DNA from: a virus
Taxonomy: Duplodnaviria > Heunggongvirae > Uroviricota > Caudoviricetes
DNA length: 9,015 bases
Virus record (IMG/VR): IMGVR_UViG_2563366903_000010
Coordinates: 1 to 9,015 of that record
Strand: one strand, 5' to 3'
The position numbers and the translations under genes were made by a program. Within the stretch, counting starts at the first letter, position 1, and each line of letters begins with the position of its first letter. The notes below the pieces were generated by a model. It had not been told where the DNA came from. It saw only the letters and a list, made by a program, of their open reading frames with translations, and searched no databases. Shown here piece by piece: positions 1 through 9,015 of the stretch.

Positions 1-243
1 TTGCCCTGCCGGACCCTGTGGTCCGGGTGGTCCGGCCTCTCCACGTGGGCCGGTGTCACCTTTCGGCCCCGGCGGTCCGCCCGGGTCACCTTTATCGCCC
101 TTCGGTCCCTGTGGACCTGTTTCTCCCCGTTCTCCCTTTGGCCCCGGCTCACCTTTTGGTCCGACCGCCCCCGTTGCCCCGGCTGGTCCCTGTGCCCCTG
201 TGGCACCCTGTGGACCTGTGTCCCCCTTCTCGCCCGCCGGTCC
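1..243 (-). repeat. Collagen-like Gly-X-Y triplet-repeat coding region inside the tail fibre gene (about 27 triplets, one interruption)
   Basis: Translation gives a continuous GXY pattern from residue 136 to the window edge; the DNA shows 9-bp-periodic GGN-CCN-rich low complexity. Confidence 0.7.
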
Positions 244-648
244 CCGGGCATTCTCTGCCCGTTTCTTCGCTTCCTCTGCACTCGCCGCCGACGCTTCAGC
301 ACGCTTCAGGATTTCCGCTGCCACCGCTTCCAGCTCTGCAAGCGCTTTCGGGTAATACTGCGCCTCATCCTGTTCCATCAGAAATTTATTCAGCGTTCCC
401 GGCTCAGAATCCGCCTTCACCAGAATGTCACCCACATACGACGGGGCGTACCCTTCCGTGTTCAGCGTCACCCGGTACCACCCCGGCTCCACATCAAAAC
501 TGTAACTGCCGGTTTCCCCCGGCTGCCCCTGCGCCACCGTGGTGACTATCACTGTCTCTGTGGTGCGTCGCGCTTTCAGCTCTATGGTGCATCCCGGCAC
601 CGGCTTCCCGGTGCCGTCCTTCAGCACGCCCGATATTCTGACTGTCAT
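1..648 (-). CDS. Phage tail fibre protein, 5' part (ATG at 648..646; gene runs off the window start): N-terminal prophage tail-fibre domain, Ala/Glu-rich helical segment, then collagen-like Gly-X-Y repeats
   Basis: My own minus-strand translation from ATG 648 is open to position 1 (216 codons): [26 protein letters not shown]...[34 protein letters not shown], then [55 protein letters not shown]... SD-like GGGAG 7 nt upstream of the ATG. It is the antisense of the listed plus-strand ORFs at 1..663. Lies directly downstream of J, where lambdoid phages carry the side tail fibre gene. Confidence 0.8.
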
Positions 649-830
649 AGATTTCTCCCATAAAAAAACGCAGTACCGGTTACCCGGTCTGCGCTCAGAG
701 GTATAAATTGTGACTGGCTGGTGTTAAAGGGTGCCGTCAGTCAAAGGCACCCGTGGATAATGTACGATGTCCGGCTTTTGTCGTTTTCCGGCAATCACGA
801 ACAGATGGATGAAACCTCACTATCCACCTG

Positions 831-3800
831 TCACGATGCGGTATCAAAATCGTCTGTATAGGATTTCAGGTAAAACAGAACCGGGTCCGGGATCCGAATT
901 TGACTCGTATCATGAAGTATTGAACCACCCCTGTAAAAAAGCACACCTGCTTCATACCTGAATGTAATTTCAACCCGCGCATCACCCTGTCCGGCAGGAA
1001 TACCCCATGAGCCTGACGCACTTCCGCCAACATCAGAATATACCGGCTCATATCTGCTGGCGTTTTTGGAAATCTGGACCTCCCGCTCCCCGGTTTTGAC
1101 TTTGCCTGACCTGGCATGAACGACAACTTTGTCATTTATCTTCATGATGAATTCACCTCTGGAAAATGAATACGCCATAAGCATAAGCTTGCGATCAAAC
1201 GGCATGTTGTCTTTCAGCAAAATCATTTTCTGAAAAGTCAGCTGGTTCTGAGTCATTACGCCCTGCCCCATATCAACCGTGTATCCCTTGACGATATCAC
1301 CAATGATTCGGTCAGCGCTCATCGTTCCATTAATGGTGCAGTCTTCCGCAATCGTCACGTTATTCAGTACCCCGGCACTGGCCGTTATCGTCCCGCTGAT
1401 ATCGGCATTACGGGCCGTCAGCCTGCCGTCCGGCGTCAGGGAGAATGCCGGGGGATTGCCGCCACTGGTAATGGTGGGGGCGGTGAGCGTCTTTATCAGC
1501 GCCTCATTGATAAAGGTCTGTCCACCCTGCGTAACCAGAGCCGGTGTGGTGTTACCATTTTCCGGGTTAATGAATGCCACGCGGTCCGCTGCCAGCAGTA
1601 TCTGGCTCTGCACCCCTTCATCCGTATTCTCAATGCCTGCACCAATACCGGCAATATAAAGGCGTCCGTCCTGCATCTGCTGTAGCTTCACCGCCCACAT
1701 GCTGTTCAGGTCATTATTTGTGTCCGTCTGCACACGCTGGATTTGCTGTATGGTGGCGTTCTGGTCCTCCAGCGTTTTACTGACCGTCTGCGTGATTTCA
1801 TTGCGGGTTTCTGTGATGGTGGTCTGCATTTCCGCCATCTCGTCCTTCAGCTGACTGTTGTCAATCTCTGCCCACAGCGCCTCTGCCAGATGCGTTTTTC
1901 CTATCTTTTCCCGGAAAAGTTCCAGATAGCCCGCAGCATCATTGCTCGCCCGTCCACTGGCTTCCACAAAAGCAGATTTACCCACCAGGTTGACGCTGCG
2001 CACATAAAACCAGAAATCCTTTCCGGGCTTAATGTGCGGACCGGAGACACTCCACTGACTGCCGGTCCCCAGATAACGGGCAGAGGTTTCCACCTGTGCG
2101 GCGTCTGCAATTTTTGCCTCCGAAAACCAGAACTCAAACTGCACCGTCGGGTCATAAATGGTCAGTTTCGGGACTGCCGTTATCTGAAAATACCCCGGCG
2201 TCAGTTCAACACCGGCAGGCGCTGCCGGTGCGTTAATCCGGAACGTGGTGGTGGCGGGTTCGCCCTGCTGGCCATAGCTGTTAATCGCCCTGACCGTCAG
2301 GGTGTATTCCCCGAGAGGCAGGCCACTGAAACGGTGCTCCGTACCGGCAGTGATGGCGGTGGTCAGCAGGCGGCTGTTCTCACCGCTTCCACTGGTCAGG
2401 CGCAGACTGAAGCGCACGCCCTTCACCACCCTCGGCGTGTCCCATTTCGCCAGCGCCAGATACTGACTGTCAGCTGCGCTCACCTCCACCGTCAGGTGCT
2501 GCACTGCCGGTGGGATAACGCTGTTCAGGGTGCCTGACTGCGGCTCAAAGCGGGCCCCGTTATCCACGATGGCTTCTTTTTCCGGTACGTGCTGCACCGC
2601 CGTAACGGCAAAGGTGCCGTCCGTGTTTTCCCGGATGGCCACACAGCGGAACAGGCGACGGCGAAGACCGGGCATTTTCAGTCCCCATACCCCGTATGTC
2701 TCCACGCCATCCGGCAGGGGGCTGACCTGTATCCGGTCAGGCGCAGGGTGTGCGGTAATGTCCACACTCACCGGCTTACCGCTGCCGTTAATCAGGTTCA
2801 CCGTCGATGTCCCCGTCTCCGGGAGTGTCACCTCACGGTCCAGCGTCAGGGTACGGCTGGCGGCATCGATGGCCAGAATGCGTCCGCCGGTCAGGGTCCC
2901 GGCGTAGTCGTTATCACAGATTTCAATGATGTCACCCGGCGTGTGACGCAGCCCCTGTGACCCGAGCGTGAAATCCACCGTCTGTGTTTCCAGCAGTTCC
3001 GTCTTTATCACCCACAGCCCGGCACGGTGAGCCTGACCGCGACTGGTGCAGCCGAACGCGTCCATCTTCAGCAGGTTGCGTCCGTAGCGCAGTATGGCTT
3101 CCGGGTCTTCCACCAGTTCCGTGGAGGTCTGCCAGCCGTTCTGCGGGTCGGTGTAATTCACCTCCACCGCCGTGTGCCGGTCCTTCAGGGCACTGAAGCT
3201 GTAGCGGAACCCCACGCCGTTATCATCCACCACCACATCGCTGTTGGTGTACGGCCACACCACATCCGACGGGCGGTCCTGAACGAACGTCAGCGTCTGG
3301 CCGTTCCATACCGGCATACAGCGCATCGCCGAGCAGAAATCACTGAGCACGTCCCATGCCTTACGCTGTTGTGCCAGGTACGCATTAAAGGTCATCCGCG
3401 GCTCTGTGCCCCCGAAACCATCCGGGACCGTCTGGTCGCAGTACTGCCCGATGGCATACAGCGCCCACTTGTCCACATCCGCCGCCCCCAGACGTTTTCC
3501 CATGCCGTAGCGCGGGTGAGTCAGCATGTCCCACAGGCACCAGGCCGGGTTGTTGCTGTATGCCGGTTTCAGACTGCCGTCCCAGATACCACTGTACGTG
3601 CGTTTTTCCGGGTCATAGTTTGACGGCACCTGGATGATGCGACCGCGGATATGGTAGTTCACCGTCATCTGCTGGCCGCCGAACTGCTCCGCATCCACCT
3701 GCAGCCCCACAATGGCCGTGTTCGGGTAGCACTGTTTCACATCGATGATTTCGGTGTATGACGACCAGAGCGTCTTATTCTGCAGCTGGTCCGTGGTGCT

Positions 3801-4361
3801 GTCCGCCGTCTCCCTGACCATCCGGATGTTAAAGGGGCGGGGAGGCAGATTATCCAGAATCACCGACGCAAGGAACTGTGAGGTGGTCTTGCCGTTAATG
3901 GTGACATCCTTTTCCGTCACCCAGTTACCGTTACGCTGTAACTGAATCAGCAGACGGACAGAGGACGGATTACGGTCACCCTTTGACGTGGTCTCCACCA
4001 GTGACTGCACCCCGAAGGTCACCCGCAGGCGGTCAATGTTCGCTGACGTAATGGTGCGTGTCACCGGTTTTGCCCTGGTCACTTCCACACCCAGTACAGT
4101 TTCAGAGCCGGAGGACTCAAAGCCTTCCGGTGGTGTCTGCTCCTGCTCCCCGGCGCGCCAGACCGCGGTCACACCGTGTATCACGGGATTACCGTCCGTG
4201 TCCGTCAGCGGGGTTTTGTTCACCAGAATACTCTGCAGGCCTTTCACCGGACCTTCAATGGGTCCCTCACCAATCGCATCAATCACGCTCATCATCTGCG
4301 TGGATTTGAGGTTGTCTTTCGCCTCACGCGGTGTGTGCGCCCTGCCGCCACCTTTGCCCAT
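831..4361 (-). CDS. J: Tail tip central fibre / host specificity protein J (1176 aa)
   Basis: ORF-track protein starts MGKGGGRAHTPREAKDNLKSTQMMSVIDAIGEGPIEGP, near-identical in pattern to the remembered lambda J N-terminus (MGKGSSKGHTPREAKDNLKST...), and tracks lambda J through most of its length (e.g. NPPAFSLTPDGRLTARNADISG, NVTIAEDCTINGT). Only the last ~150 aa differ. RBS AAGAGGTGA upstream of the ATG. Confidence 0.95.
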   Translation of the reverse strand: MGKGGGRAHTPREAKDNLKSTQMMSVIDAIGEGPIEGPVKGLQSILVNKTPLTDTDGNPVIHGVTAVWRAGEQEQTPPEGFESSGSETVLGVEVTRAKPVTRTITSANIDRLRVTFGVQSLVETTSKGDRNPSSVRLLIQLQRNGNWVTEKDVTINGKTTSQFLASVILDNLPPRPFNIRMVRETADSTTDQLQNKTLWSSYTEIIDVKQCYPNTAIVGLQVDAEQFGGQQMTVNYHIRGRIIQVPSNYDPEKRTYSGIWDGSLKPAYSNNPAWCLWDMLTHPRYGMGKRLGAADVDKWALYAIGQYCDQTVPDGFGGTEPRMTFNAYLAQQRKAWDVLSDFCSAMRCMPVWNGQTLTFVQDRPSDVVWPYTNSDVVVDDNGVGFRYSFSALKDRHTAVEVNYTDPQNGWQTSTELVEDPEAILRYGRNLLKMDAFGCTSRGQAHRAGLWVIKTELLETQTVDFTLGSQGLRHTPGDIIEICDNDYAGTLTGGRILAIDAASRTLTLDREVTLPETGTSTVNLINGSGKPVSVDITAHPAPDRIQVSPLPDGVETYGVWGLKMPGLRRRLFRCVAIRENTDGTFAVTAVQHVPEKEAIVDNGARFEPQSGTLNSVIPPAVQHLTVEVSAADSQYLALAKWDTPRVVKGVRFSLRLTSGSGENSRLLTTAITAGTEHRFSGLPLGEYTLTVRAINSYGQQGEPATTTFRINAPAAPAGVELTPGYFQITAVPKLTIYDPTVQFEFWFSEAKIADAAQVETSARYLGTGSQWSVSGPHIKPGKDFWFYVRSVNLVGKSAFVEASGRASNDAAGYLELFREKIGKTHLAEALWAEIDNSQLKDEMAEMQTTITETRNEITQTVSKTLEDQNATIQQIQRVQTDTNNDLNSMWAVKLQQMQDGRLYIAGIGAGIENTDEGVQSQILLAADRVAFINPENGNTTPALVTQGGQTFINEALIKTLTAPTITSGGNPPAFSLTPDGRLTARNADISGTITASAGVLNNVTIAEDCTINGTMSADRIIGDIVKGYTVDMGQGVMTQNQLTFQKMILLKDNMPFDRKLMLMAYSFSRGEFIMKINDKVVVHARSGKVKTGEREVQISKNASRYEPVYSDVGGSASGSWGIPAGQGDARVEITFRYEAGVLFYRGGSILHDTSQIRIPDPVLFYLKSYTDDFDTAS

Positions 4362-4390
4362 TACATCACCTCTTACCGTGATAATTGTTC

Positions 4391-4426
4391 ACTCACAAAA
4401 ACAACAGGCACCTCACCGGGTGCCTG
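4391..4426 (-). terminator. Intrinsic terminator-like hairpin, minus-strand orientation, just upstream of the J ribosome-binding site
   Basis: Stem CAGGCACC (4405-4412) / GGTGCCTG (4419-4426), 6-nt loop; on the minus-strand RNA the stem is followed by UUGUUUUUGU. Confidence 0.5.
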
Positions 4427-4464
4427 CGTCATGACGGAATAAAATTTCTGAATATCTTCACATT

Positions 4465-4492
4465 TTCACACACTGACTGTGGCGCTTATAAT
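4465..4492 (+). promoter_or_regulatory. Near-consensus sigma70 promoter on the plus strand (antisense to the tail operon)
   Basis: -35 TTCACA (4465-4470), 16-bp spacer, -10 TATAAT (4487-4492); AT-rich upstream tract aaaatttctgaatatcttca; predicted start near 4499. Confidence 0.55.
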
Positions 4493-4498
4493 TTCGCT

Positions 4499-4597
4499 GC
4501 GTTAGTTTTTTTTTGCCCGAGTAACAAAAACAACTCCTTAACATTAATCTTCATTTGTCTGTCCCCGCAGCTCCGCGATCACTGCGGGATTTTTTTA
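4499..4597 (+). ncRNA. Candidate small RNA (~100 nt) in the I-J intergenic spacer, opposite strand to the tail genes
   Basis: Bounded by the promoter at 4465-4492 and a plus-strand intrinsic terminator (stem CCCGCAG 4564-4570 / CTGCGGG 4582-4588, then AUUUUUUUAUGUUUUAU). No ATG with a ribosome-binding site inside. Contains a CA-rich stretch GUAACAAAAACAACUCCUUAACAUUAAUC. Confidence 0.45.
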
Positions 4598-4601
4598 TGT
4601 T
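4563..4601 (+). terminator. Rho-independent terminator, plus-strand orientation
   Basis: 7-bp GC-rich stem with 11-nt loop followed by a T7 run (4590-4597); abuts the stop codon of I on the other strand. Confidence 0.6.
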
Positions 4602-5282
4602 TTATCCCTGTCGACCAATAACCACCACCTTTCCGCCCCCGCCTTCATCACGGGTGCTGATGTCCTGAGAGATACGTCGTGAACCAACCAGCATTTCCCC
4701 GTAAGGCACCGGCATCGGGTTGCCCTGGGCAATCATGTTATCCAGTGACGAAAAATACGTGTTCTGTCTGCCGTTATCCGTTGCGCGGTAATCCGGTGTT
4801 TTTGCCTTCGGGGCCAGCATCTGGGCCACACCACCCAGAATCATGCTGGCTCCAAGTGAAAACAGCATCGTGGTGGCAGAAAAACCACCGGCTGCCAGGG
4901 CTGAACCCCATAACGCCATCGTGGCTCCGGCAGTGAAGAAAGAGCCCACGATGGCCGCCGCCCCCAGCACAATCTGCAGTCCGCCCTTTCCGGCACCGGC
5001 CAGTCGCGGCACAATATGGATGACCGTTCCCTCACCCAGTGGTTCGTGAAGGCGGGCATACACCGCCTCCGGTGCCGTGTCATCACCGGCAATACGTATC
5101 TGGTACCAGCCTTCGTTCATCTGACGGCGAAAGCCCGGCACCTGCAGCGACAGGGCACGGATGGCTTCCGCCGCCGTGTTCACATACAGGCTGAAGCGGC
5201 GGCCAAATCGTTGTAAATCCCCGTGAAGGCAGATGTGTGCCAGTGGCGGTGACGCCAGACAGAATGCGTTCGTCGTTGCCAT
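4602..5282 (-). CDS. I: Tail tip assembly protein I (226 aa)
   Basis: N-terminus MATTNAFCLASPPLAHICLHGDLQRFGRR matches the remembered lambda I (MAATHTLPLASPGMARICLYGDLQRFGRR); Gly/Ala-rich hydrophobic middle and C-terminal QNTYFSSLDNM..QGN...PV.YGEM.VGSR as in lambda I. Confidence 0.9.
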   Translation of the reverse strand: MATTNAFCLASPPLAHICLHGDLQRFGRRFSLYVNTAAEAIRALSLQVPGFRRQMNEGWYQIRIAGDDTAPEAVYARLHEPLGEGTVIHIVPRLAGAGKGGLQIVLGAAAIVGSFFTAGATMALWGSALAAGGFSATTMLFSLGASMILGGVAQMLAPKAKTPDYRATDNGRQNTYFSSLDNMIAQGNPMPVPYGEMLVGSRRISQDISTRDEGGGGKVVVIGRQG

Positions 5283-5917
5283 TTTTCGGAATACCTCTCC
5301 CGTTTACTCAGTTGTTCAGGCAGATGGTGAAGCAGTTCACCGTTGCCGCAGTAAATGGCGGCATGATTAGCCACCGATGCGCCGAAGCAGCACAGCAGGA
5401 TATCGCCCGGCAGTGCAGAGGACAGGGGCACCCGGTAAAAGCCCGTTGCCTCCATATTGTCCAGGTAAAGGTTCTGACCGTTGCACCACCAGTCATCCTC
5501 ACGGTGAAAATCCGGCATATCAATGCCTGCCAGATGGTATGCATCCCGGAACAGCGTGTAACAGTCCGTCACCCCGTGCGCAAAGCGCCGTCCGGTCAGG
5601 TGCGGAACGCAGCGGAATTTGTGAATGTCACCCCGGCAGACCAGCCACCAGGGCAGGGCACTTTTTATCTGCAGTCGCCGGTCTGCCTCACTCAGCCAGG
5701 GCAGACCACCGGGATGACTGTGGACCAGCGCCACAATCTCACCCTGCATCTCCGCCCGCAGCCAGTCTTCCGGGGCAATACGAAAATACGCCTCCGGCGC
5801 TGCGGAGATATTCACACAGGGCAGGTACCGCTCGCCCTCCGTCGTGGTTATCACGAAGCCGCACGACTCCGCAGGCGCACACCGCCGGGCATGCGCCAAT
5901 ATATTGCTATAGAGCAT
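5180..5917 (-). CDS. K: Tail tip assembly protein K (245 aa), JAMM/MPN-type and NlpC/P60-like motifs
   Basis: Contains HSHPGGLPWLSEAD, an exact HxHx7Sx2D JAMM motif, and a downstream Cys/His segment (DCYTLFRDAYH ... HH) as in lambda K-family proteins. Strong RBS AGGAG 6 nt before the ATG at 5917. 3' end overlaps the I start by 103 nt in another frame. Confidence 0.85.
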   Translation of the reverse strand: MLYSNILAHARRCAPAESCGFVITTTEGERYLPCVNISAAPEAYFRIAPEDWLRAEMQGEIVALVHSHPGGLPWLSEADRRLQIKSALPWWLVCRGDIHKFRCVPHLTGRRFAHGVTDCYTLFRDAYHLAGIDMPDFHREDDWWCNGQNLYLDNMEATGFYRVPLSSALPGDILLCCFGASVANHAAIYCGNGELLHHLPEQLSKRERYSEKWQRRTHSVWRHRHWHTSAFTGIYNDLAAASACM

Positions 5918-5930
5918 GAGAACTCCTGAT

Positions 5931-5958
5931 AAAAAACCCAGCCGAAGCTGGGTTTGTT
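5931..5958 (-). terminator. Rho-independent terminator (usable in both directions; strongest for the minus strand) ending the antirepressor-like gene, 14 nt upstream of the K start
   Basis: AAAAAA (5931-5936), stem CCCAGC (5937-5942), loop CGAA, stem GCTGGG (5947-5952), then TTTGTT. Minus-strand RNA reads hairpin + UUUUUU. Confidence 0.7.
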
Positions 5959-5971
5959 AAGTTGTCAATTG

Positions 5972-6886
5972 TCAGTAGCGATGCAGTGAAGGCGGCAACT
6001 CTTTGTTCTTAAGCCTTTCCCATGCCAGAAGGTTCGTCGGCCCGTCAGGCTCATAAATATCTATATCCCGCGTGTGATTAATTAAAACGCCCCTCGCCCT
6101 CCCGATGGTATACGAGAACTCATAGCCGTAGTCGTGGCATATGCCGGAATAGCCAGACTGAATCAGTTTTAATGCGGGATACAACTCACGGAACAATGCC
6201 TGTGAGCGGTTAGCATAATCCCATAGCCATACAAGGCTGTTTGCTTCTTTTGCGGAAAGCTCGTTGGTGCTCTTCTCTTGTTTGCCGATTAACTCTCCTT
6301 CAAGCGGAACGCGAGCAGCAAGTGACAGAGCTTCGGTAAACTGCTCCTCGCTGATTTCTTTGTACGAACATCCAAAATGTGATTTCAGTGACGACCACAT
6401 GGTGATCATCGCCTTCGCCTGTTTTTCCTTTGGCAGAGACTGACCGCGACTCATGACGAGTTGTTTAATGGCTTCCTGCTGTTCAGTAGTGATTTTCCCC
6501 GGCAACGCCTTTTTAGCTTTCAGTGTATTTCCGTAAGACCCCGTTTTACGAATGGATGGCAAAACTTCAGCTGTCACCCATTTGCGGAATTTGTGCGGGA
6601 CTGAACCTTTATTGACGGCATCGCGGCAACGCAGAACCAATGTATACATACCTGATTCGCTCACAATGCTTAAATTCTGCTCACCACCAAGGGTGTAACT
6701 TAAAGTTACTCCCTTTTCATCGTCATCAAGTGCAGTAAGCGCCTTGCGTGAGTTAGTCAGATTTAAAGCATCACAAACATCTTTTGCTACAAACCACGGC
6801 TCACCGCACTTGTTGATGACGCGGATTTCACTGTCGCCGAATTTGAAGATGGTGAAATCGTTTTGTGCCTTTGCTATACTTTTCAT
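5972..6886 (-). CDS. Bro-N domain phage antirepressor-like protein (304 aa), Ant-like by position downstream of the Arc-like gene
   Basis: N-terminal region [76 protein letters not shown] matches the Bro-N pattern; the C-terminal ~150 aa are unassigned. RBS AGGAAA 7 nt upstream of the ATG. Same size class as P22 Ant (~300 aa). Confidence 0.8.
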
Positions 6887-6918
6887 GTCAATATTTCCTA
6901 ATCCGATTTGTTGATACC

Positions 6919-6950
6919 GAAGCCCTGACTGTTACAGCAGTTGGGGCTTC
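6919..6950 (-). other. Intercistronic stem-loop overlapping the Arc-like stop codon, between the Arc-like and antirepressor-like genes
   Basis: GAAGCCC (6919-6925) / GGGCTTC (6944-6950) with an 18-nt loop. On the plus strand it is followed by AACTTTTTAG; on the minus-strand mRNA there is no U tract, so it is not a canonical terminator there. Confidence 0.3.
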
Positions 6951-7089
6951 AACTTTTTAGGCTGCGAATAAGACGCTGCACTATTTCTGAATTTAAAGAC
7001 CTGCCCTCCTCCTTAGCCTTTTCCTTCAATTTTTCTTTAATCTCTGGCGGGATACGAATCCCTAATGGAGCGATATCTCTAACTTTCAT
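6949..7089 (-). CDS. arc: Arc-like ribbon-helix-helix transcriptional repressor (46 aa from ATG 7089)
   Basis: MKVRDIAPLGIRIPPEIKEKLKEKAKEEGRSLNSEIVQRLIRSLKS; the GRS(L/V)NSEI core and overall layout match remembered P22 Arc (…EENGRSVNSEIYQRVMESFK…). The listed 87-aa ORF starts at a TTG and would cover the promoter region, so the internal ATG is preferred. Confidence 0.7.
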   Translation of the reverse strand: MKVRDIAPLGIRIPPEIKEKLKEKAKEEGRSLNSEIVQRLIRSLKS

Positions 7090-7121
7090 TTCTTTCCCAA
7101 TTGCTACACCGTGATAACTAA

Positions 7122-7149
7122 ATACTACACCGTGCTTATTTAAAGTCAA
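7122..7149 (-). promoter_or_regulatory. Sigma70-like promoter for the Arc-like/antirepressor-like operon
   Basis: On the minus strand: -35 TTGACT (7149..7144), 16-bp spacer, -10 TAGTAT (7127..7122); predicted start near 7115. The -10 overlaps repeat copy 2. Confidence 0.5.
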
Positions 7150-7167
7150 AGTTTTTTTGCCTACACT
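7139..7167 (+). promoter_or_regulatory. Possible promoter for the Mnt-like operon (weak match)
   Basis: -35 TTTAAA (7139-7144), 17-bp spacer, -10 TACACT (7162-7167), overlapping the 13-bp palindrome; placed back-to-back with the minus-strand -35. Confidence 0.3.
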
Positions 7168-7199
7168 GTGTAGCAATGCTACAGCGTGCAGGAGGAAAA

Positions 7200-7448
7200 A
7201 TGAAAGGTGCAAGAGATATCAGTCCCTTGGGAATTAGGATTCCAGACTATTTAAAGAAACGCATTCAGCAGGAAGCGGATAAAAACGGCAGATCAATGAA
7301 CTCAGAGATTGTGCTTATCCTTCAAAAACATGTTGATAATCTTGATGGCCCTCGCTCACTTGAAGGATTCGCTAACCAAGAAGCTGACAAATTCAAAGAG
7401 GCGCTGCTTGAGACGCTAAAGACCATGTATGGTAAGGATGAAAAATAA
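7200..7448 (+). CDS. mnt: Mnt-like ribbon-helix-helix repressor (82 aa from ATG 7200)
   Basis: MKGARDISPLGIRIPDYLKKRIQQEADKNGRSMNSEIVLILQ...FANQEADKFKEALLETLKTMYGKDEK. Same length as P22 Mnt (82 aa), with matching ARD, NGRSMNSE and C-terminal ...TLK..Y.K blocks. GGAGG 4 nt before the ATG at 7200; the listed 90-aa ORF starts 8 codons earlier with no RBS. Confidence 0.8.
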   Translation: MKGARDISPLGIRIPDYLKKRIQQEADKNGRSMNSEIVLILQKHVDNLDGPRSLEGFANQEADKFKEALLETLKTMYGKDEK

Positions 7449-7984
7449 TGCTGCACACAATTCATTTCTTATGCCCCGTTAACACTGCCACTGTTGGGCA
7501 ACTTCAGAACCACTGTCTCACCGCATTATCTCAAGGCGCAACTGAATTAAATATCCATATATCAAGTCAGGGAGGGGAAACTGCCGCTGGCTTTACTGCG
7601 TATAACTTTCTTAAGTCACTCCCTGTTACCGTTAGAACTCACAACATAAGCAATGTTGAATCCATAGCTAATATCGTTTTCCTGGCTGGCTCAGAACGTT
7701 TCGCAAACCCATTATCAAGATTCCTGTTACATCCTCTATTATGGGTCTTTGCCACCCCAGCCGCCGACCATGCCAGATTGAGAGAGTACGGGAAATGCCT
7801 CGATAACGATCTTGATCGCTTCGTTGAGACGTTCAATATCGACATCGGAACCCATATTAGGTGGGCATCCCTGATAGCAGACTCGACCATTTTGGATGCT
7901 AACAAGGCTCTTGAGCATGGCATAATTAATTCCATAAAAACTGCAAGGCTGGTATCCAATCAGGCAAACTGGTGGGTTGTTTGA
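7448..7984 (+). CDS. ClpP-fold (S14-like) putative Ser-His-Asp serine protease, 178 aa, lacking the ClpP N-terminal segment
   Basis: By-eye alignment to E. coli ClpP: LNIHISSQGGETAAG vs IYLYINSPGGVITAG; NVESIANIVFLAG vs GQAASMGAFLLTAG (Ser retained); LLHP vs MIHQP (His retained); LIADS vs TERDRF (Asp retained); EHGIINSI vs EYGLVDSI. The start ATG overlaps the Mnt-like stop (TAATG) with AAGGA upstream, indicating translational coupling. Confidence 0.75.
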   Translation: MLHTIHFLCPVNTATVGQLQNHCLTALSQGATELNIHISSQGGETAAGFTAYNFLKSLPVTVRTHNISNVESIANIVFLAGSERFANPLSRFLLHPLLWVFATPAADHARLREYGKCLDNDLDRFVETFNIDIGTHIRWASLIADSTILDANKALEHGIINSIKTARLVSNQANWWVV

Positions 7985-8009
7985 TGGGTAAATCATGATT
8001 GCTCCTTAT

Positions 8010-8031
8010 AAAAAAACCACCTGACGGTGGG
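8010..8031 (-). terminator. Intrinsic terminator-like hairpin immediately downstream of L (minus orientation)
   Basis: A7 run (8010-8016), stem CCACC (8017-8021), loop TGAC, stem GGTGG (8026-8030); minus-strand RNA reads hairpin + UUUUUUU. On the plus strand there is no U tract after it. Confidence 0.5.
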
Positions 8032-8040
8032 CATAATCCA

Positions 8041-8739
8041 TTACTGCGAAAGTTTATTAATGGAAAGGAAACCGCCAAAATTGCCGACATTCCTGCGCAG
8101 TTCACACCCGCGCATGCACTTGCTGCATCTGTCCTTACGGATATCGGTGGTGGGTTTATCGAACTCATCCGCCACAGCCCCGCCCGTGTAACCACACTCA
8201 TCAGAGCGGTAAGTCCACATACAGGTATTCGCCAGCATAATGCGACCGGGAAACAGCGCCCCGTCCGTCTCGGTCGGTGTGGCCAGCACAAACGAGGCCG
8301 TCATGGCTGTGAGCTGCGACATCTGCTCCACCACCCAGCGGTCCGTCAGCTCCTGCTCCGGGTCAGCCTCCGGATTGCCTGCCACAAAATTCACCGCATC
8401 CAGAAAACGCGCATACACCCGGCGACGAACCACCGTGGCCCCCACCAGGCTCTGCAAATCCTCCGCCATCCCGGTGACCAGCCCGAACAGATTCGACACC
8501 GTCAGTGACGGGCGGGCACTGCTCCCTTTCCCGTTCATCTCAAAGCCGCTGCCGTCAATCGGGTATGCCTGGTACTTCCGCCCCTGCCAGGTGACCGGCT
8601 CCCCTTTTTCATTCAGCTCATTACAGAAAAAATACCGCTCACCGCCCTGTACCGTCAGGTCGATTTCCCAGAGTACCACCCGCGGTGACTGCTCTGATTT
8701 AATCGACTCATTCAGGCTTTCTTCGTTGATCTCCTGCAT
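8041..8739 (-). CDS. L: Tail tip protein L (232 aa from ATG 8739)
   Basis: MQEINEESLNE...VVLWEIDLT..GGERYFFCNE.NEKGEPVTWQGR.YQ.YPI.GSGFE.NGKG...FLSINKLSQ matches remembered lambda L along its full length, including the C-terminus. The listed 250-aa ORF adds 18 N-terminal codons that run through a terminator hairpin and are rejected. Confidence 0.9.
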   Translation of the reverse strand: MQEINEESLNESIKSEQSPRVVLWEIDLTVQGGERYFFCNELNEKGEPVTWQGRKYQAYPIDGSGFEMNGKGSSARPSLTVSNLFGLVTGMAEDLQSLVGATVVRRRVYARFLDAVNFVAGNPEADPEQELTDRWVVEQMSQLTAMTASFVLATPTETDGALFPGRIMLANTCMWTYRSDECGYTGGAVADEFDKPTTDIRKDRCSKCMRGCELRRNVGNFGGFLSINKLSQ

Positions 8740-8752
8740 AAACATCCACCCA

Positions 8753-8777
8753 TAAAAAAAGGGGCGCAATGCGCCCC
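8753..8777 (-). terminator. Rho-independent terminator (minus orientation) ending about 14 nt upstream of the L start codon
   Basis: Stem GGGGCGC (8761-8767), loop AAT, stem GCGCCCC (8771-8777), with an A7 run at 8754-8760 on the plus strand, i.e. hairpin + UUUUUUU on the minus-strand RNA. Confidence 0.65.
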
Positions 8778-8835
8778 TGATAAAATAGTTCAATTAAAAA
8801 ATCAAAAACGATGAAGGTAATAAAATGAAAATTAA

Positions 8836-8852
8836 ATCAGCTAATAGCTGAT
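8836..8852. repeat. Perfect 17-bp palindrome ATCAGCTA-A-TAGCTGAT
   Basis: Read directly from the sequence; intergenic between the porin gene and L. Candidate protein-binding site. Confidence 0.5.
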
Positions 8853-8861
8853 CGCAGTGAC

Positions 8862-8916
8862 CAGTGGAAATATAACTTCCACTGATACAGGCCATCTGTG
8901 AGGGCAGATGGCCTGT
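8862..8916. other. Two adjacent stem-loops just downstream of the porin stop codon
   Basis: CAGTGGAA (8862-8869) / TTCCACTG (8877-8884), and ACAGGCCATCTG (8887-8898) / CAGATGGCCTGT (8905-8916). The second is followed by TATTTATTT on the plus strand. Confidence 0.4.
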
Positions 8917-8935
8917 ATTTATTTACCAGTAATCA

Positions 8936-9015
8936 TCAGAACTGATAAGTCATACCAACAGCAACGATATCATCCGTTGCAATGCCCGCATCCCTGGTAA
9001 ACTTATTCTCATCAA
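8936..9015 (-). CDS. 3' end of an OmpC/NmpC-family general porin gene (C-terminal 25 codons plus stop; gene continues beyond the window end)
   Basis: Minus-strand translation ...DENKFTRDAGIATDDIVAVGMTYQF-stop. The terminal ...VA.G..YQF with aromatic C-terminus and the preceding D.N.FTRDAGI.TD.IVA pattern match remembered enterobacterial porin C-termini (OmpC ...[24 protein letters not shown]). Confidence 0.6.
   Translation of the reverse strand, partial: DENKFTRDAGIATDDIVAVGMTYQF

Follow-up and report, generated by a model that had tools for sequence, protein, structure and literature searches.

The immI region of phage P22 is the textbook form of an antirepressor switch. Its mnt gene diverges from arc and ant, the sar RNA lies across the arc-ant junction, and in the podovirus genome the module is flanked by genes 16 and 9. 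According to the annotation of NC_002371, from which the P22 promoters and operators were taken, the 90-bp spacer between the divergent genes holds two promoters that overlap almost completely and two operators of unlike sequence, and the two repressors carry two different reading heads. Oarc fills the spacer of the ant promoter (Pant), and Omnt, a 17-bp palindrome (AGGTCCAC-G-GTGGACCT) bound by a tetramer of Mnt, begins just past the -10 hexamer. Here, we describe a variant of this region in a 9,015-bp stretch of viral DNA (IMG/VR record IMGVR_UViG_2563366903_000010, positions 1 to 9,015; hereafter the window), in which a spacer of 110 bp (7090–7199) separates two divergent genes for ribbon-helix-helix (RHH) proteins. 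From comparison of sequences, we consider it highly probable that this spacer holds the promoters and operators of an antirepressor switch of the immI type, which a lambdoid Escherichia coli prophage bears as a moron inserted between its tail genes K and L, and that four repeated sites within it are RHH operators read by a head common to both proteins.

Two groups of phages carry comparable modules. The "ant morons" of P22-like phages (epsilon34, ST64T, and others) are mosaic, independently regulated ant/arc/mnt inserts in the late operon (Villafane et al., 2008; PMC2629481); that study gives no operators for the alleles other than that of P22 and does not discuss the present one. Cassettes of the class found in the window (class A, defined by the repressor head RDIxPxG(I/V)R) also occur in P22-like contexts, beside gp16 or SieA genes (loci L090 and L093). 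Shiga toxin (Stx)-converting phages (e.g., NC_049945) share the insertion point between K and L, with flanking K and L genes 91%–99% identical to those of the window, and their ant/arc genes at this point are known from annotation alone. Beyond the Arc/Mnt family, the omega heptads, the met-boxes of MetJ, and the sites of CopG and AmrZ are short iterated or palindromic sequences read by a two-stranded β-sheet, with several dimers in each control region. These systems differ from the one described here in that their homology with the window proteins is limited to the fold, and the spacing of the present sites does not form a regular tandem array.

The spacer is bounded by the ATG codons of a 46-amino-acid Arc-like protein on the minus strand (7089) and of an 82-amino-acid Mnt-like protein on the plus strand (7200). 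A pattern search with CTACA(C/G)(C/T)GTG returned four exact copies, all on the plus strand and all inside 7104–7188, and the repeat finder gave start-to-start spacings of 21, 36, and 18 bp. The third copy is the left part of a perfect 13-bp palindrome, CTACACTGTGTAG, at 7161–7173. An earlier sequence-only reading of the window had reported the coordinates of the region, the four copies, their spacings, and the palindrome, and had them right. The copies are as follows.

7104–7113, plus strand: repeat copy 1, CTACACCGTG
7125–7134, plus strand: repeat copy 2, CTACACCGTG
7161–7170, plus strand: repeat copy 3, CTACACTGTG
7179–7188, plus strand: repeat copy 4, CTACAGCGTG

Outside the spacer, the degenerate 10-mer had no match on either strand of the window. 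The expected count per window is 0.07 (standard deviation 0.27), and none of 200 dinucleotide-preserving shuffles reached four copies; chance is excluded as the origin of the repeats because four copies stand against 0.07 expected. Gene J contains one TACACGGTG (4172–4180, minus strand), which is consistent with chance, as 0.52 copies are expected per window. When the sites, named O1 to O4, were scored as 13-mers against CTACAC-N-GTGTAG over 12 scored positions, they reached 9, 9, 12, and 10, respectively, and a score of at least 9/12 was attained at only one of 8882 window positions outside the spacer. Their placement relative to the predicted promoters is given below.

7104–7116: O1, CTACAC-C-GTGATA, 9/12; covers approximately -1 to +12 of the minus-strand Pant-like promoter
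7125–7137: O2, CTACAC-C-GTGCTT, 9/12; lies on the -10 hexamer and spacer of the Pant-like promoter
7161–7173: O3, CTACAC-T-GTGTAG, 12/12; overlaps the -10 hexamer (TACACT) of the candidate mnt promoter, 12 bp upstream of the Pant -35
7179–7191: O4, CTACAG-C-GTGCAG, 10/12; adjoins the mnt Shine-Dalgarno sequence
7122–7149, minus strand: Pant-like sigma-70 promoter, TTGACT (7149–7144), 16-bp spacer, TAGTAT (7127–7122), 9/12; predicted start ∼7115
7139–7167, plus strand: candidate mnt-like promoter, TTTAAA (7139–7144), 17-bp spacer, TACACT (7162–7167), 8/12, read by eye; predicted start ∼7174
7152–7158: run of seven T, an A-tract on the Pant strand at approximately -37 to -43

The Pant-like promoter is the sole minus-strand hit of the promoter scan in 6700–7500, and its placement bears out the proposal of the sequence-only reading that repeat copies cover the -10 and start region of the minus-strand promoter. 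At O2 the overlap is intimate: operator CTA and hexamer TAG are the same three base pairs read on opposite strands. The -35 element, GTCAA as read on the plus strand, is kept in all class-A lineages and in P22, where the corresponding Pant element is TTGAC, and O2 and O1 hold places equivalent to those of Oarc and Omnt. The same reading had placed copies on the -10 and leader of a plus-strand promoter. This stands as far as the sites are concerned, since O3 overlaps the candidate -10 and O4, at approximately +11, lies downstream of the predicted start; the promoter itself, however, matches the consensus at 8/12 only, below the threshold of the scan. Its region is nearly invariant in eight enterobacterial loci. 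The rightward start is probably that of this candidate, which would stand back-to-back with Pant with the two -35 hexamers adjacent, a difference from the overlapping promoters of P22. For a P22-style overlapping mnt promoter, the hexamers near GTCAA (TTTAAA, TATTTA, and TAAAGT) lack a usable -35, and the back-to-back candidate was preferred. The T-run, which is also present in allele B and in the Sulfuricella locus L083, may be a UP-like element or the spacer of the mnt promoter. O3 and O4, on the mnt side, have no counterpart in P22.

The two genes that face each other across the spacer encode proteins of the same family.

6949–7089, minus strand: arc-like gene, 46-amino-acid RHH protein with head MKVRDIAPLGIRIP; Pfam Arc (PF03869), 5.2e-13
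7200–7448, plus strand: mnt-like gene, 82 amino acids, RHH domain with head MKGARDISPLGIRIP followed by a C-terminal helix; Pfam Arc (PF03869), 6e-8

Against the PDB, the Arc-like protein matched P22 Mnt (1.5e-5), Arc (5.5e-5), and also pArc, and its 46-residue length is conserved in relatives; PGAP labels it "YlcI/YnfO family protein." The Mnt-like protein matched P22 Mnt (1mnt_A) at 1.6e-5 over residues 4–76 and phrog_2685 at 1e-31. Its C terminus, ...ETLKTMYGK, aligns with ...DTLKDLYKK of P22 Mnt and is homologous to the Mnt tetramerization helix, so that this helix, like the Pant -35, is retained from P22 immI. The AlphaFold model of the Mnt-like protein shows helices at 16–29 and 33–48 and a long C-terminal helix at 51–78, after an extended N terminus, and the RHH turn G-R-S-x-N-S-E is present in both proteins (GRSLNSE and GRSMNSE). 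A fold search with this model gave only RHH proteins (AmrZ, Arc, and CopG) as top matches, none of them significant (best E value 0.24), as expected because a 45-residue domain was modeled as a monomer. The start at 7200 is preceded by AGGAGG (7190–7195). Longer mnt open reading frames of 87 (TTG 7212) or 90 (ATG 7176) amino acids were rejected, since no Shine-Dalgarno sequence precedes them and the additional residues show no conservation.

When the N termini are aligned (P22 Mnt, ARDDPHFNFRMP; Mnt-like, ARDISPLGIRIP; Arc-like, VRDIAPLGIRIP), the positions of Mnt residues 2, 6, 8, and 10, which we take to be the DNA-contacting residues, are R, P, G, R in both window proteins, compared with R, H, N, R in P22 Mnt and Q, N, R in P22 Arc. 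The RD arm of both heads is of the Mnt type and not of the Arc type. The N-terminal coding regions (7049–7080 and 7212–7243) form a 32-nt inverted repeat of 75% identity in the repeat finder, which at the level of DNA is evidence for paralogy of the two heads. Identity of head between the short and the long protein is also found in L017, L085, and L086, including Atlantibacter and Rosenbergiella. Because it persists in lineages whose remaining protein sequence has diverged, the shared head is old and maintained.

The sites themselves resemble Omnt. Both have a CAC-N-GTG center with T/A at ±5, the Omnt core GTCCAC-N-GTGGAC matches O3 at 8/12, and a relative from Sulfuricella has a perfect palindrome that is also 17 bp long. 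At ±4 and ±6, P22 has C and G where A and C are found here, and these differences parallel the changes His6-to-Pro and Asn8-to-Gly in the head. A His6-to-Pro mutant of Mnt reportedly has altered operator specificity, which serves here as a lead and not as evidence. Whereas P22 has one such site, the window has three to four copies of graded symmetry. Given the identical heads, the Mnt-type arm, the likeness of O3 to Omnt, and the single repeat family, we infer that one set of operators is read by both proteins, and this sets the module apart from P22 more than any other feature. In P22 immI, each repressor has an operator with a sequence of its own; because of the single operator type and the identical heads, the window represents a variant of P22 immI and not a plain member.

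A narrower interpretation assigns the repeats to a single protein, probably the Mnt-like repressor (a predicted tetramer), and has the Arc-like protein act at another sequence in the spacer or through mixed oligomers with the Mnt-like one. The precedent of two different operators in P22 speaks for it, as do a slight difference between the N-terminal arms (MKV- versus MKGA-) and the Sulfuricella locus L083, where the head of the partner is unrelated and TACAC sites are nevertheless present. N-terminal residues reportedly determine the specificity of Arc versus Mnt, and it is here that the two window proteins agree at all four homologous positions, an agreement kept in three further diverged lineages. 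The repeat finder returned no second repeat family in the spacer, and reading of its sequence gave no TAGA/TCTA box of the P22 Oarc type. We regard assignment of the sites to one protein as unlikely. A switch with a single DNA specificity is favored, with a confidence somewhat above even: Arc- and Mnt-sized paralogs that have had the same R, P, G, R head since before the enterobacterial split would compete for three to four graded operators and would differ just in oligomeric state and in the promoter from which they are made.

To what extent the sites have been kept can be judged from L017, a locus of the same head class whose Mnt is 74% identical. Between the window and L017, third-codon positions of arc and mnt are 41%–44% identical, whereas only five mismatches fall in 7105–7177. 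Two of these are operator center bases, and two further ones move the right halves of O1 and O2 nearer to GTGT. O3 is identical at 13/13 positions; at O4, 8/13 positions are common. Eight enterobacterial class-A loci, comprising the window, L012, L017, and five from a protein search (Serratia, Salmonella, and read-set assemblies), have Mnt-like proteins ∼72%–98% identical to that of the window. In all eight, O1 is found at -89/-90 from the mnt ATG with a score of at least 9/12 and a center base that varies between C, G, and T, O2 at -68/-69 with 9–10/12, and O3 at -33 with at least 9/12. The CAC and GTG triplets of O1 to O3 are invariant and the center base is free. The distance from O2 to the -35 GTCAA is fixed at 10–11 nt in six lineages, and GTCAA is separated from the TACA of O3 by 12 nt in all lineages, those of Atlantibacter, Rosenbergiella, and Sulfuricella among them; O3 is invariant in the eight enterobacterial loci and in 11 distinct variants from viral contigs. 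Conservation of the sites far above that of neighboring synonymous positions is the mark that purifying selection leaves in sequence comparisons. One class-A variant (L011, 1693–1803), in which Arc R12H in the β-strand is combined with changes in O2 (to CTATAC) and in the -35 (to the weaker TCGACT), looks like a decaying copy of the switch.

The same conservation bears on whether O3 and O4 might act mainly as RNA, in a hairpin of the mnt leader whose 5′ arm would contain the T-run and O3 and whose 3′ arm would contain O4 and the Shine-Dalgarno sequence, with translation of mnt controlled by this structure and not by a bound repressor. The segment 7153–7215 does fold to -17.7 kcal/mol with AGGAGG paired (z = -2.0; 5 of 200 shuffles were as good), and the repeat finder lists the inverted repeat. 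Any two palindromic operator copies also make an inverted repeat, however, so that the potential for a hairpin is automatic. L017, L012, and L090–L093 no longer form the apical stem UGUAGC/GCUACA and show no compensatory changes, and if transcription starts at ∼7174, the 5′ arm would never be transcribed. O1 and O2 would be left unexplained. Control through such a leader hairpin is therefore very improbable, and O3 and O4 are better read as DNA sites of the RHH proteins.

Association of the motif with the head can be followed beyond class A. With the Mnt-like protein as query, 79 loci were obtained from viral contigs; the C-terminal ...ETLKTMYGK... is common to their Mnt proteins, several N-terminal head types occur, and each head type or allele has its own spacer palindromes. 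TACAY-N-GTG, looked for in the 125 nt upstream, was present in 2–4 copies in 15/15 distinct class-A regions and in 0/36 distinct regions with other heads (seven head types). The class-A set includes Atlantibacter, Rosenbergiella, and two Sulfuricella loci (found via the Arc-like protein), and among the sites of these loci are a 17-bp perfect palindrome, GGTTACAC-C-GTGTAACC (Sulfuricella), and TTACAT-T-GTGTAG. Exchange between alleles shows the same linkage. In a BLAST comparison with the allele-B phage EC.P3, the flanks 6545–6958 and 7356–8031 are 96%–98% identical, and between them there is no alignment; downstream of mnt, the window is 98% identical to the allele-B loci L003 and L020. The segment exchanged is the following.

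6958–7356: specificity cassette; arc, spacer, and mnt codons 1–52, swapped as a unit between alleles

Its right breakpoint, 7356, is the exact border between the DNA-binding domain of Mnt and the oligomerization helix. A swap of arc, spacer, and Mnt residues 1–52 together is, judged from these alignments, the behavior expected of a repressor-operator specificity unit. Motif and RHH head go together across bacterial classes and are exchanged together, and the RHH proteins would be the factors that bind the motif. That the sites belong to another factor (a host protein, Ant, or the CI/Cro of the prophage), or that a 21-bp tandem duplication left them behind without function, is the least probable explanation, for although O1 and O2 do sit in a 21-nt direct repeat of 76% identity (repeat finder) and extra binders are conceivable, neither accounts for this association, for conservation far above synonymous positions with precisely the center base free, or for the excess of copies over expectation. 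Homology, the motif-head association, and conservation of the sites thus support in silico the suggestion of the sequence-only reading that these are Arc/Mnt-type operators on divergent promoters; the shared head, the single operator type, sar, and the homology to P22 immI had not been mentioned there.

In the switch proposed here, the strong leftward Pant-like promoter would drive arc-like and then ant, with translation of ant further damped by the sar antisense RNA, and a weak rightward promoter, probably TTTAAA-17-TACACT, would drive mnt-like and a ClpP-like gene behind it. Occupation of O1, at the start, and of O2, on the -10, would shut the ant promoter. Occupation of O3, and in this phage also of O4, would throttle the mnt promoter, so that the Mnt-like protein limits its own synthesis; protein bound at O3 may in addition mask the A-tract that precedes the Pant -35. 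During lysogeny, O1 and O2 would be occupied by the Mnt-like protein, a predicted tetramer through its C-terminal helix, and ant would stay off. After infection, the ant promoter would fire, and the Arc-like protein would accumulate and close the same sites, binding of both proteins to all of them being what the common head predicts. Each palindrome might take up two dimers, as with P22 Mnt, or each CAC-N-GTG core a single dimer.

Several observations weigh against this scheme or parts of it. The promoter scan returned no plus-strand promoter for mnt at its 9/12 threshold, and distant lineages do not keep the -35 of the candidate. Were O3 to be the tightest site and the mnt promoter to overlap it, simple occupancy would predict self-repression of mnt before Pant closes, and cooperativity or another position of the promoter would then be needed. 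At the position of O4 (-15), a score of at least 8/12 is found in 5/8 class-A loci, and the site is unrecognizable in L090, L092, and L093; O4 is probably functional here, as a lineage-variable extra site outside the conserved core. The shared head is not universal, as the divergent partner in Sulfuricella has another one (QSVTVRFP). With Pro and Gly at two head positions that normally contact bases, recognition may lean more on the N-terminal arm. Finally, none of the protein-family and structure matches led to a characterized member, and a full-text literature search, incomplete in its coverage, gave no functional work on this allele or on the ant modules between K and L in lambdoid or Stx phages.

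The surroundings of the spacer agree with an antirepressor module inserted in a tail operon. On its minus strand, the window carries lambdoid tail genes (J, 831–4361; I; K, 5180–5917; L, 8041–8793), and it is 99.8% identical to Escherichia phages PhiR12_1, _4, and _5. Between K and L lies a five-part insert of ant, sar RNA, arc-like, mnt-like, and the ClpP-like gene, so that gene set and order are those of P22 immI, and the location and the ClpP-like gene after mnt are differences from it. The remaining parts of the insert are listed here.

5972–6886, minus strand: ant, antirepressor of 304 amino acids; Bro-N 2.5e-20, P22_AR_C 4.5e-26
6888–6954, plus strand: sar-type antisense RNA, Rfam RF00262, full length, 69.4 bits against a gathering score of 43, E value 3.6e-13
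7448–7984, plus strand: ClpP-like gene, 178 amino acids; Pfam CLP_protease 1.6e-11

The ant product matches phrog_245, "anti-repressor Ant," at 1.5e-104, and arc-like, 62 nt upstream on the same strand, is the first gene of the ant operon. The sar RNA is complementary to the arc-ant junction and to the ant ribosome-binding site; it has a promoter (GTGAAA-17-TATACT, 6852–6880) and a terminator (6919–6950, 14-bp stem) with a T-run. Other Rfam matches in the window (MicF, ctRNA_pGA1, rsmX, and two snoRNAs) were far under their gathering scores and were taken as chance. Both the RefSeq record of P22 (NC_002371; L088, 3520–3771) and two PHROG families (phrog_2685 and phrog_795) label mnt "partition protein ATPase," which on Mnt-type repressors is a propagated annotation error.

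The ClpP-like open reading frame overlaps the stop codon of mnt-like by one base (TAATG), an arrangement of translational coupling, and is probably co-expressed with mnt-like from the prophage. Matches of its product to ClpP-related head proteases in NCBIfam and PHROG were all below cut-off, and PADLOC gave no defense hits for the ClpP-like, Ant, or Mnt-like proteins. A ClpP-like gene also stands behind mnt in the Salmonella locus L092 and in the allele-B loci L003 and L020. In a related immI module (L054, 1579–1761, minus strand), the open reading frame after arc encodes a 61-amino-acid protein consisting of a ClpX C4 zinc finger alone (PF06689, 42.6 bits), and one in L020 (1519–1719) has the same position and cysteine pattern without a Pfam match. 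The occurrence of ClpX-finger and ClpP-like proteins within one ant-moron family suggests an unexplored tie to proteolysis.

At the edge of the insert, right behind the stop codon of tail gene L, a terminator-like hairpin with a T-run (8017–8030, minus strand) is kept in the Stx-phage locus. Late tail transcription must pass this hairpin and the antisense mnt and clpP-like genes to reach K, I, and J. The allele occurs in 19 of 5426 complete E. coli genomes. In E. coli CP55_Sichuan (L089, NZ_CP053731), the arc-mnt region is 100% identical, and tail gene L is followed directly by ompC, which shows that this prophage is truncated.

The module at the same insertion point in Stx phages is an unrelated cassette, with another head, a TGGCA-type motif, no ClpP-like gene, and an ant that overlaps arc. 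It is nevertheless alike in layout. In the Stx2a phage WGPS6 (L002, 2741–2847; NC_049945), the divergent RHH pair has heads that match each other (IKLNLRLP and DKFNLRFP), and the spacer holds one repeat family, GCCATAATGCCA / TGGCAATATGGC. By this comparison, a layout of one head and one motif may be widespread in medically relevant phages.

While the kind of system is already textbook, the operator sequence of this allele, its 3+1 architecture of sites, and the Mnt-type head common to both proteins, in which Pro and Gly occupy base-reading positions, appear to be undescribed, and what is new is a variant of P22 immI. The practical consequence is modest, as the allele is rare and its overall logic is that of the textbook system. 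Antirepressor modules decide the silence of a prophage and of co-resident prophages whose repressors Ant can inactivate, and the operator and head of an allele predict which phages are immI-homoimmune and where cross-induction is possible; a sister module sits at the same point in Stx phages. Arc and Mnt are the classic model of DNA recognition by a β-sheet, and a natural pair with Pro/Gly, a near-Omnt operator, and one head could inform how specificity is encoded. If the single-specificity switch is correct, its decision logic would be set by a hierarchy of affinities and by cooperativity, not by two recognition codes. The allele, and probably the very common Stx-phage allele, would then preserve what is presumed to be the ancestral condition of the Arc/Mnt pair, before their operator specificities diverged, and the pair could show how duplicated repressors work before such divergence.

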